A stretch of DNA of 64,000 nucleotides from Octopus vulgaris. Lineage: Eukaryota. The translations under genes and the position numbers were made by a program. Positions within the stretch are counted from its first letter, which is position 1. The number at the start of each line of letters is the position of its first letter. Positions 32,374 to 39,044 of this stretch are shown piece by piece. Under the pieces are notes generated by a model. The model saw only the letters and a program-made list of their open reading frames with translations, had not been told where the DNA came from and did not search any database. The stretch is taken from assembly GCA_951406725.2 (NCBI GenBank), contig OX597823.1, positions 107,136,001-107,200,000 on the forward strand. Reading direction: 5' to 3'.

Positions 32374-32450
32374 CCTATCTCTCCCTCTCTATATATATAT
32401 ATGTGTGTGTGTATGTGTGTGCGTGTGTGTGTGTTAAGTAGCTTGCTTAC

Positions 32451-34536
32451 GCGCATGCGTTAGTTTTACTTCTGCACGGGTGTTGTCAAGACGTTGCTTT
32501 GCAACGGTCTTGAACAAAAGAACTGTGAAGGAGCAACTATAACGTAGGACGTTTGTTTGTTTTTTTTTTTGTTTTTTTTTGGGGGGGGGGTTCAGAGATG
32601 CTTTGTTGTTTATTGTCCATTTTTTTCGAACAAGAAATCCCCACTGGATTCCGGGGTATTTGTCTGCCTGTAGTTGCGCTAAATGTCTCACTTAGTTGTG
32701 AGAAGAGTGGTTTTGGGGGTGTATCCCGCCTCCAAAAGTTGTTAAATTTTTGTGAAAAAGTTTTCTGAATATTTACCAATTTGTGGTGGATTTTTTTGAA
32801 GCTGTATTCCTGCTACTGTGACTCTTTTCATTTTTGGAGTACCTTTGGAGTACCTTTTGACCAGGAGTACCGGTTGGCCGGAATCGTGTGTTGCCGTGTT
32901 TTGAAGTCTTCATTTTTTCTTTTTCTCTTCTTTGTCTTTCTGCTCTTCTTTGTCTTCCTTCGTACTGTTTTTTGACTTTGGTAGGACATTCGTTGTTTTT
33001 TTTTTAACTGTTTCCTGAACTTTTTCTTCAAAGCATGGCGAAGAACTTGAACACTGCATTGGAGTGGGAAATCATCCCACCCAAGCAATGGCTCAAAAAC
33101 CTAGAGGAAAGAACGGTGGTGTTGAGGACTTATTCTAAGTTACTCGACAACATCGCTGTCTTTCCTAAAACAGATATAGAAAATGAGTTAGCAGAGAATC
33201 TGCTAAGTATTAAGTTTAATTCCAAGGGTGCTAAATATGCAACGGTGTGGTTGCTATTTGACACCCCTGAGGTGGCTCGCCAATTTGCGAGCCAGCCCTT
33301 AGAAGGGGAAAAGATTCTGTTTCTTCCCACATATTGTGGGAAGAAATTAACAAGAGCTCGGGTTTATAGGCTGCCACCGGGCATTGAACCGGAATGGATA
33401 GAGGACACTATCCGCCGGAGTCTGAGTGGCAGCAGGTCCAAGCTTTTGAATGGGGAATTGTTGCCGGTAGCTGATTGGGTGGGATCAAAAGCAGTTTTGA
33501 CCCTATGGACCCAATCAGCCGTTAAAGATCTGGTATTTCCAGATTTTTTGAAAATGCCCGGTTGCAGGTACCTAGTGATACTTGAAGGACGCCCCCCACC
33601 ATGTGTCACTCGTGCCTGGAACCGGGTCATATTAAGAAGAACTGTCCCCAGGACCAAAGTAGAGTCCTGGAGCAGTTAATAAAAGTAGTACCCCCTCCTC
33701 CTTCAGAGGGAGAGATGGAGGCAGTCAAGTATGTGGAGACCTCCTTGAAAAAAGGGGAAAAAGGAAGAAGGTGGGTAAAAATGGTTGCCCACCGAAGGAC
33801 GCCAAGGCTGCGAGGAGGAGGGAAGATCCTCCGGATAAAGCGGAAGAACCACACCCTCTCGTTGCACAAGGGAGAAAAAAATGAAGAATGGGACATTGCC
33901 AGCGGTTAGTAGTACACTGCCGGCATGTCCTGAAACATCGTCGGTGGGAAACTGCAACCCCTCCCATTATGATGAAGGATGAATTTGTGATCTTCTTTCA
34001 TAAGGGAGGGGCTGTACAGAGCTTTGTGAAGAAGCTAGAGGGCCGGAGGGAAAGGGTCCTGTCCTGTACAGAAGACCCTGATGGGCCTCCGCGGGTAACT
34101 GCGGAGGTCATAATGGAAAATTATATGTTCAGAGTGGTAGGTTCCTTTCCCAAGGACCAATAGAGTTTTGCTTTCCGGGGCCCCGACTTAGAACTGCAGG
34201 ATTGCCTGCGGGAGGCAAGTTGCTTGGTCGGGGAGGAAAGGTAAGGAGCCTTAGTGCCTCGATTTGAAATTTTAATTTGTTATTTTTTGGTAAGAGGCTC
34301 AGCGCCTCAACTTGTAAGGACGATTGCGTCCATTCTTTGAACTTTGGTAAGAGGTTCAATACCTCATTTTGTATTGTTGAGAAAAAGGGGACAATGTTTT
34401 CGGGAAGCAGCAATGGGCGGGCGTTGTCTGCTCCCCACACCAACCATCTTTTCATTTTTTCATTCCATTATCATTTGTGTTTTTATCCAGCGGATTGCTA
34501 CATCTTTGCAAGGTTCTATGGCCAATTTATGAGATA
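32451..34536 (+). mobile_element. Non-autonomous ORF1-only (half-L1/Tx1-like) retroposon with 15-bp TSD, inserted into a family B SINE head
   Basis: The TSD aagta(g/a)cttgcttac lies at 32436-32450 and 34537-34551. The element has a T-rich 5' UTR, a single gag-like ORF with a CCHC knuckle, a structured 3' UTR, and no recognisable RT or endonuclease. Confidence 0.8.
33035..34163 (+). pseudogene. gag/ORF1-like nucleic-acid-binding protein with CX2CX4HX4C zinc knuckle, broken by at least two frameshifts
   Basis: Three overlapping ORFs (33035-33679, 33601-33909, 33888-34163) join into ~370 aa. Motifs are RVYRLPPGIEPEWI, YLVILEGRPP and CHSCLEPGHIKKNC, followed by a Pro/Lys/Arg-rich linker. This layout is typical of L1/Tx1-type ORF1. 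Confidence 0.75.
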
Positions 34537-34945
34537 AAGTAACTTGCTTACCAACCAAATGGTTCCGGGTTCAGTCCCACTGCATGACACCTTGGGCAAG
34601 TGTCTTCTACTATAGCCTCGGGCCGACTAAAGCCTTGTGCGTGGATTTGGTAGACGGAAACTGAAAGAAACTCGTCGTATATATGTGTGTATATATATAT
34701 ATGTGTGTGTGTATATATATATGTGTGTGTGTGTGTGTGCTTGTATGTCTGTGTTTGTCTCCCCAACATCGTTTGACAACCGATGGTACTGTGTTTACGT
34801 CCCCGTAACTTAGCAGTTCAGCAAATGAGACCGATAGAATAAGTACTTGACTAAATAAACAAAGAATAATTCCTTGGGTCAATTTGCTCGACTATAGGCG
34901 TTGCTCCAGCATGGCCGGAGTCAAATGACTAAACAACTAAAAGAG
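34537..34945 (+). mobile_element. Family B CORE-type SINE (downstream part of the interrupted copy)
   Basis: B box GGTTCAGTCCC, CORE-like CACCTTGGGCAAGTGTCTTCT, internal (TA)/(TG) and the tail ...gctccagcatggccggagtcaaatgact. Confidence 0.88.
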
Positions 34946-35364
34946 TATATGTAATTGAGATTCAGTTGAAATAGGTACTTAAGTTGAAGCACAAAGTCCA
35001 GTATTATCCACATGGCTCAAAGTAAGGTGAATAAAATAGATTTAGTAGTTGGTAAATAGATGAATTAGAAATGAATTACAATCCCTTACAACACTATGAC
35101 CCTAAAAGGCTTCATGCGATTCTTGGAAGTGTAGTCTATTCTTAGCTACAATACCGACAACATGAATTCCTTCCATCTTCTCGCTCTGCTAAAGTATTTG
35201 AGAAAATTTATATTAATGTGTCCTACTTGTTAAAATTCTATTTATTTATTTGTGCCGCTGAAGATGGCACTGCGTTTAAATTGATTGCATTGTTCAATTA
35301 AATAGAGCCGCTTGAAATGGTCGTACTGCATCACTACTTGATATCCTGTTGCTTATTTTGATTT

Positions 35365-37964: not shown

Positions 37965-38965
37965 AGTTTTTTTATTGGCCACACAGGGCTGCACACAGAT
38001 GGGACAAGTTACAAGGTAGAGCTTTTTCTTTTGGGGGATGAAAAAAACAAAAAAAAACAAAAGAAACAAAAAAAAGGGGGTGGCGTAGGTTTTCGATCAA
38101 GAGGGATCGTAAAAGGGAAGAAAAGAACAAAAAAAAAATTTTTTTTAATAAAAAATAAAAAATAAAAATTTAAAAAGAAAAGGAAAAGGAACAAAAGAAA
38201 TGAGAAATGAAAAAAGAAGAAAAAAGGGGAAGAGGAAAAAAAACGATCAATAGGGATCGTGTATCACAGTGTTATAATATATGGTGTAAAGGGGAAAGCA
38301 AGTAAGGTTTATCCGTGGGAAGAAAAGCCTATGAAAAAGACCACGGTAACCTTGGTCAATATTCTTATATGTTACCACATTTGTTTGCAAGTGGGTAACC
38401 CTCTGTTTTCAATTTCTGGGTTCATAGGATTATGCTCAAGGTGGCTTCGTCATTCATACGTGCCATCCTTGCTACATTCACCCATCTTTTTTAAAACATT
38501 CGCTAGACAAAACTTGCCTCTCTACTCTCACTTTCTTTTCAAGTGGTACTTGAAGAAGTTGATGAGAGATTGACCAGAGAGGAAAGTGTTTGTCTCCAAT
38601 CCTTTCAGACGCGTCCACCAGATACATTCTTTCGCCATAGCCACAAGGATGATGAAAATAGCTCTTCCTTCCCGTTTGAAGGAAGGAGGCGTGACAATAT
38701 TGACGATAGACTCAGCTGATAAACCCACTCGTCCCACACGTGACAGCAGTTGTTCGACATAAGCCCACAGGTCGGAAATTGTTGGACACTGCACGAGTGC
38801 GTGCAGAACGGTTTCGTCGCTCTGACTGCATCTCGGGCAGGTCGGCCCCGTGTTTCTCGAGCCGTGTCTGTAGAGCTTATCCCGAACGGGTAGCGCTTTT
38901 CGGTAGCACTGCCAGACCAGGGATCTCTGGAAGTTGTCCATGGGCCCTGGCCCGAAAGTCGTCCC
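37965..38965 (-). mobile_element. 5'-truncated Tx1/L1-clade LINE (ORF2 C-terminal zinc-binding region and 3' UTR) in a (GATA)n tract
   Basis: WQCYRKALPVRDKL...CPRCSQSDETVLHALVQC...LW...AKECIW is a zf-RVT-type motif. The T-rich 3' UTR ends CCAATAAAAAAA. GATA repeats lie on both sides. Confidence 0.88.

Positions 38966-39044
<79 letters not shown>

Follow-up and report, generated by a model that had tools for sequence, protein, structure and literature searches.

GTAA-hairpin units in the 3′ UTR of ORF1-only retrotransposons of Octopus vulgaris share the shape of the terminal hairpin of an autonomous partner

Introduction

What might four short hairpins, each introduced by GTAA, do near the end of a dispersed element of Octopus vulgaris? 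The element lies in the window, i.e., the whole 64,000-nt stretch of DNA that was analyzed. A sequence-only reading had described the hairpins as a 3′ UTR array with compensatory changes, bracketed by two long hairpins, and had proposed a multivalent signal for packaging by the ORF1 protein (ORF1p) or for recruitment of the ORF2 protein (ORF2p) of a partner. Such an array bears on how non-autonomous LINE derivatives circumvent the cis preference of ORF2p, and to our knowledge ORF1-only elements are the least studied of these derivatives. Here, we ask whether the units are real and conserved, which other elements carry them, and which of several readings of their function survives best.

Results

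An ORF1-only retrotransposon at a fixed site

The window element is an ORF1-only non-autonomous LINE of the HAL1-like kind, with a single ORF1, target-site duplications, dispersed copies and a shared 3′ end (Table 1). Its 3′ part matched 388 candidate copies on many contigs, the 40 of these that were scored being 78–92% alike over that part. According to the junction listings, many copies occupy the same site in the head of a common SINE-like repeat, and the junction pattern of the whole element group gave 574 exact genomic matches compared to none for a control. A second ORF of at least 300 aa beside ORF1 was absent from all 20 nine-kb loci of relatives. The target repeat may be a tRNA-derived SINE; ARAGORN reports no tRNA in it, and A- and B-box-like motifs were recognized by eye.

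L1-type HAL1 elements have a poly(A) tail and an ORF1p made up of a coiled coil, one RRM and a CTD. HAL1 proper, which belongs to the L1 clade, was rejected as an identification, given an ORF1p model with two RRM-like domains and a CCHC knuckle and the lack of a poly(A) tract after the element in the junctions listed. At five off-target copies (L003, L005, L008, L027, and L045), the 3′ junctions end in the first 4–6 target letters and are followed by unrelated DNA, again with no poly(A), as would be expected if the template RNA ran into the target.

Table 1. Positions of the element, its flanks and its candidate RNA signals in the window.
Feature	Position	Strand	Remarks
5′ target-site duplication	32436..32450	+	15 bp, in head of SINE-like repeat
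ORF1-only non-LTR retrotransposon copy	32451..34536	+	~2.1 kb, decayed; between target duplications
ORF1	33035..34244	+	frameshifted; early stop at 34161-34163
Upstream long hairpin of the sequence-only reading	34171..34240	+	last ORF1 codons; folds in family, weakly kept in sister families
Unit 1	34241..34260	+	class A; includes ORF1 stop
Unit 2	34290..34308	+	class A; GAGG/CCTC stem
Unit 3	34314..34331	+	class B; GGAC/GTCC stem
Unit 4	34347..34365	+	class A; last unit, in most subfamilies
Long hairpin	34402..34436	+	strong covariation; loop 34417-34422 is 5′ half of predicted pseudoknot
Predicted pseudoknot partner	34490..34495	+	GCCCGC in family; mutated in window copy
Target-complementary motif	34496..34501	+	short; changes with target variant
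Terminal TGTA(A/C) + hairpin module	34507..34523	+	common to autonomous partner; decayed in window copy
Poly(A)-signal position	34533..34538	+	AATAAA in family, one change in window copy; overlaps 3′ duplication
3′ target-site duplication	34537..34551	+	1 mismatch to 5′ copy; followed by SINE-like repeat body

The units form a conserved, repeated hairpin motif

The four GTAA-hairpin units, the inverted repeats upstream of them and the hairpin downstream were all recovered where the sequence-only reading had placed them. That the ORF1-only element carries an RNA hairpin motif which is both repeated and conserved is supported. In 29 representative UTRs, we counted 40 TAA with a GC-rich 4-bp stem immediately after them, compared to 1.1 ± 1.1 (maximum 5) in 300 dinucleotide shuffles; on the reverse strand, the count at offset 0 is 0 of 149. 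The class-A pattern gave 1259 exact genomic matches versus 3 for a reversed control, and the first 30 of these, read by eye, are all located in UTRs of the element group. Rfam searches of positions 32500–35000 returned 10 matches at E ≤ 5, none at the gathering threshold and none over the units.

The folding energy of the 266-nt stretch from 34171 to 34436, with z −1.81 on the plus strand (10 of 200 shuffles fold as well) and −3.64 on the minus strand, is modest, does not select a strand, and on its own is weak evidence. Local folding of the window copy yields units 2 and 3 (p ≥ 0.96); units 1 and 4 are outcompeted by other pairings (p ≤ 0.01), as is predicted for the family. Unit 1 is imperfect in the window copy only and reads GAGGC...GCCTC in most family copies. 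Across units, 72% of 65 class-A and all 22 class-B hairpins fold locally with p > 0.5.

Among 144 tails from 53 clusters, architectures range from zero to four units. The stems fall into class A (GAGG/CCTC, rarely AAGG/CCTT) and class B (GGAC/GTCC), the window being A-A-B-A, and block duplications and deletions are common (L022, L099, L248, and L330). In the last unit, as aligned in the 36 of 44 subfamily rows that retain it (the other 8 were dropped), GTAA is conserved at 92–97%, the stem core at 86–100% and the loop at 53–92%, and conservation of the spacer upstream is 0.36–0.69 save for one column at 0.92. For the 147 class-A 5′ halves identified, the 3′ arm is perfect in 113 and one letter off in 28. 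The inner pair of 87 distinct class-A units is T-A in 28, C-G in 25, T-G in 22, C-A in 4 and another combination in 8; T-G thus far exceeds C-A, which favors pairing in the sense strand.

The compensatory changes claimed for the units did not hold up across copies. Among 33 copies of the window's family, only 2 of 658 unit pair-cells have changed on both sides and 83 are broken, a lack of covariation that is expected from decay after insertion. The GAGG/CCTC core is near-invariant across subfamilies as well, with changes mainly at the inner pair (U-A, C-G, U-G); compensatory change between subfamilies is confined to this pair, one outer-pair swap and the difference between classes A and B, whose homology is unproven. 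Hence, the core stems of the units are conserved rather than covarying.

Two kinds of mimicry were considered and set aside. Loop letters are, by eye, too variable for T-loop, anticodon-arm or IRE mimics. A likeness of the units to the target site (GGTAAGAGGC compared to GGTAAG[A/T]AGC) was noticed as well; the units stay constant when the target variant differs.

The upstream hairpin is the end of ORF1

Intact ORF1 frames of younger relatives span 413–421 aa, and the nearest named protein comes from Octopus sinensis. The AlphaFold model of the intact L091 ORF1p comprises two RRM-like domains, a CCHC knuckle, a disordered linker and a C-terminal alpha/beta domain. Foldseek matched the RRM-like domains to hnRNP A1, raver1 and HuR with a best E of 1e-4; the C-terminal domain is confidently modeled and has no clear fold match (best VIA, Z 5.0). 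As modeled, two RRM-like domains plus CCHC would place the protein in type I of the scheme set out in the available part of PMC4120745. The C-terminal domain diverges much faster (20–58% identity in most rows) than the RRM region (~70%). In some subfamilies (L069–L074, L078, and L082–L089), a new C-terminus is followed by the remnant of an older C-terminal segment of ORF1, which no longer codes and is part of the 3′ UTR.

Not all of the stretch is 3′ UTR, as 34171–34240 codes for ORF1. Copies L011 and L048 can be read in frame to ...GEER and ...GEGR immediately 5′ of unit 1, and the TAA of unit 1 (34242–34244) is the ORF1 stop in the family frame and in 12 of the 17 copies of the window's cluster. 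The distance from stop to first unit is 0 nt in 10 of the 42 clusters listed and at most 3 nt in seven more, with the reservation that reading frames in decayed single copies are unreliable. The upstream hairpin region folds well within the window's family (majority z −4.1), but 22 aligned relatives yield no RNAalifold consensus and are 73% paired compared to 69% when shuffled. It was rejected as a conserved structure and, being coding and weakly kept, is not supported as a bracket of the UTR.

A covarying tail with a predicted pseudoknot

Covariation, thin in the units, is strong in the downstream long hairpin and in the terminal hairpin. Over 44 tail rows, which were hand-chosen at about one per subfamily and whose relatedness inflates double-change counts, the tail structure is 91.7% paired versus 84.1% in shuffles, with 89 double changes versus 31.8. 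Double changes affect 9 of the 12 pairs in the long hairpin and 3 of 4 in the terminal helix, which is 94.6% paired.

The loop of the long hairpin can pair with GCCCGC ~70 nt downstream (92% paired), and this is the sole helix that RNAalifold picks. The two halves likely form a pseudoknot, which a mutation masks in the window copy. The predicted pairing barely covaries within the ORF1-only group. Family B, described below, has AGGTGGGG in the loop and CCCCACCT downstream, each half being present in 11 of 18 parsed tails as read from the listing, and in another lineage the halves read TGTGGGG/CCCCACA. The target-complementary motif switches with the target: the A:T ratio is 60:1 for AAGTAG targets and 12:16 for AAGAAG targets. 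These counts leave out the family-B class, a single ambiguous row and all rows lacking the motif, and the copies in them are not independent. The tail model also marks out what is probably the recognition module of a site-specific retrotransposon.

An autonomous partner ends in a hairpin of the same shape

One autonomous element, L207, encodes an intact ORF1 and a 1134-aa endonuclease-RT-zf ORF2 (PF03372, PF00078, PF13966) and is flanked by the same target duplication as the ORF1-only elements. L207 and L205 share the target, the terminal hairpin and the last ~60 nt with them, and over 195 aa the L207 ORF1 and the ORF1-only protein have 29% identity. A homologue search with the partner returned 69 proteins, none of them named Tx1. 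We presume that the partner belongs to the Tx1 clade; it has an ORF2 with APE endonuclease, RT and zf-RVT, and target specificity.

Tails of every class mostly end in a module of TGTA(A/C), 4-bp stem, U-rich loop and AAT, including 86 of 106 ORF1-only and 8 of 11 autonomous ones. The descriptor of the array (GTAA plus GC-rich stem), essentially the same as in the comparison of UTRs with shuffles, matches once in each of five full-length autonomous copies, at −32/−33 relative to the 3′ end, against a background of 98 GTAA sites in these copies and 0 of 61 on the minus strand; the five copies represent two related subfamilies, and this test was run after the likeness had been noticed. Farther upstream, it has no match in 21 autonomous, 16 family-B and 9 array-less tails, and 105 matches in 97 ORF1-only tails. 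Both the terminal and the class-A modules have U-rich 5-nt loops, e.g., TTAAT. The stem letters differ, with GAGG/CCTC and GGAC/GTCC in the units and NGCC/GGCN in the terminal hairpin, and the terminal flank in array-bearing families is TGTAC in 38 of 86 and TGTAA in 18 of 86. Since the shape is that of the terminal tail signal, the array looks like multiplied copies of this signal. Of the two functions that had been proposed, recruitment of ORF2p gains support, because the single terminal hairpin of the partner has the same GTAA-plus-stem shape.

Two ORF1-only lineages lack the array

Family X is young, with an intact ORF1, no unit and 1386 candidates that are 94–100% alike, and its ORF1p is 48% identical to the array-bearing homologue. 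Among the fetched copies, 23 of 25 lie upstream of another element. Family X also forms head-to-tail arrays with a 2-kb period at the target site (G000 C1:223694757-223707092; L287–L303), which end on an autonomous or another ORF1-only element, and several of its junctions on different contigs have the same extra T in the duplication.

Family B is a second lineage at the same target, apparently likewise ORF1-only. No units were found in its 20 loci (L151–L170), of which 12 are located directly before the SINE body, i.e., were inserted alone, and six directly upstream of an older autonomous family. Its ORF1 pieces are 39–47% identical to that of the partner and thus closer to it than those of the other ORF1-only elements. 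The array is therefore optional, two ORF1-only lineages doing without it, and a role as an essential packaging signal is not supported, given the young family X and the second lineage B.

Intact natural copies of the parasite with the array (L091) and without it (L146) coexist with the partner L207, and the natural series of zero to four units makes multiplication of the signal directly testable.

Discussion

Candidate functions of the units

We tentatively favor, as the most plausible of the readings considered, that the units are optional extra binding sites for the partner's ORF2p, built in the same shape as its terminal hairpin. The units would fold in the sense RNA; the long hairpin, the predicted pseudoknot and the terminal hairpin would constitute the core of the tail that ORF2p recognizes, if stringent LINEs are a guide; and the array would raise the avidity for an ORF2p that the parasite must capture in trans. 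A fuller version is possible but more doubtful: the partner's recognition hairpin may have been multiplied into a tunable array of zero to four units that out-competes the partner's own RNA for ORF2p, atop a pseudoknotted tail with a kissing pair rewritten between lineages and a target-complementary motif. Several observations speak against binding by ORF2p. The stems of the units barely vary and differ from the terminal stem, which a mimic of shape need not do; the array-less family X is abundant, family B inserts alone, and units 1 and 4 of the window's family are predicted to prefer other pairings. Moreover, the terminal flank is often TGTAC, and the analogy with the zebrafish ZfL2 elements is drawn from another clade.

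The main rival, which we regard as somewhat unlikely, is that the units are upstream enhancers of 3′ end formation, presenting UGUA(A), exposed by the stems, to host CFIm and so stopping the transcript at the terminal AATAAA. CFIm binds UGUA and loops RNA, according to the available part of PMC5546720, and in the tails of ORF1-only, family-B and autonomous elements TGTA exceeds its shuffled frequency about twofold (e.g., 317 versus 162.5), the family-B class of this count including some autonomous tails. A bare TTGTAA run is present in the autonomous tail L240, AATAAA lies at the very end of the element with no element-encoded signal downstream, and the fetched family X copies mostly precede another element, as read-through might give, although the copy count of this family is inflated by tandem arrays. 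As in CFIm elements, UGUA is repeated in U-rich sequence upstream of AAUAAA; in contrast to these elements, the conserved word is GUAA and each is joined to a fixed stem (compared with PMC5546720, as far as available). A T stands before GTAA in no more than 54 of the 91 distinct contexts of units, GGTAA is the reading of three of the four units in the window, and in its available part the same description of CFIm gives no role to an adjacent stem of fixed sequence.

Packaging of the RNA by the element's own ORF1p is less probable still. Tandem RRM-like domains and a CCHC knuckle, as predicted for this protein, would suit such a role, the zinc knuckles of SART1 package their own RNA (PMC4120745, available part), and arrays were seen in ORF1-only lineages only. 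However, family X has a homologous ORF1p and no array, and a hairpin of this shape also closes the autonomous element, with an ORF1p only 29% identical to that of the parasite.

A neutral origin of the array, through tandem duplication and recombination between stacked elements, appears improbable: block duplications and deletions, the variable copy number and the near absence of compensatory change in the core stems would fit, but GTAA and the stems are 86–100% conserved while the spacers and the ORF1 C-terminal domain diverge, and the bias toward T-G at the inner pair argues against neutrality.

Each GTAAG had also been likened to a 5′ splice site or U1 site, and function as such, or as U1 snRNP sites suppressing polyadenylation, is very improbable. 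In its favor, GTAAG is present in 74 of 91 contexts, the family version of unit 1 is AAG/GTAAGA, and GTAAGT lies on the ORF2 stop in nine of nine autonomous tails listed. Compared to the consensus MAG/GTRAGT, however, positions −3 to −1 are mostly T/A and +6 is A or G and never T; class B has GTAAT, and from +5 on the site is concealed in the stem. Two contigs whose runs we guess to be RNA cross the array with no part skipped, and no joint among those listed starts at a unit, these contigs giving no ends, strand or level.

Relation to known elements

The kind of element is itself known. HAL1, HeT-A and Ag-Sponge are bipartite non-autonomous LINEs with ORF1 present, and like them the octopus element encodes ORF1p only, has a LINE-type 3′ end and depends on a partner (PMC5786205, available part). 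Unlike them, it is site-specific in a SINE-like repeat and lacks a poly(A) tract at its junctions, and the available part of PMC5786205 mentions no repeated hairpin array for these elements. Target-specific LINEs of the Tx1 clade include Tx1 in Tx1D, Keno in U2 and Tx1-Mar in Mariner-N4; the likeness extends to an endonuclease-RT-zf ORF2 in the partner, a fixed site in another repeat and non-autonomous passengers sharing the target (PMC4494074, as available). In contrast, the target here is a SINE-like head and the passengers keep ORF1, and the placement in this clade is putative.

In zebrafish ZfL2-1 and ZfL2-2, ORF2p recognizes a 3′ stem-loop and binding has been shown (PMC4176376, available in part), and stringent LINEs in general have single 3′ stem-loops (PMC3747384, available in part). 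As in the ZfL2 pair (same part of PMC4176376), a conserved, covarying terminal stem-loop is common to autonomous and dependent elements in octopus; in contrast to that single stem-loop of the L2 clade, the octopus tail has multiple parts and zero to four look-alike units, and its binding by ORF2p is putative. An annotation of octopus repeats lists active L1-Tx1 families, and the words ORF1, non-autonomous and nested are absent from its main text, so far as this was accessible (PMC13282606). No description of such an array was found in the abstracts and listings searched, which do not cover Repbase or Dfam. What is new is the likeness of the array to the terminal signal and the tail with its predicted pseudoknot.

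Further observations on autonomous elements

GTAAGT, a close match to the 5′ splice consensus, lies on the ORF2 stop of L205, L207, L219, L220, and L285 and at the ORF1 end of the autonomous L141, L150, and L158, and the target site itself reads GGTAAGT. The TTGTAA run in the L240 tail consists of about seven tandem repeats without stems. The window also contains, at 37970–38990 on the minus strand, a 5′-truncated copy of a very young autonomous LINE (1149-aa ORF2; 24478 candidates, 98% alike), which terminates in a (CTAT)n microsatellite and whose terminal hairpin is similar.
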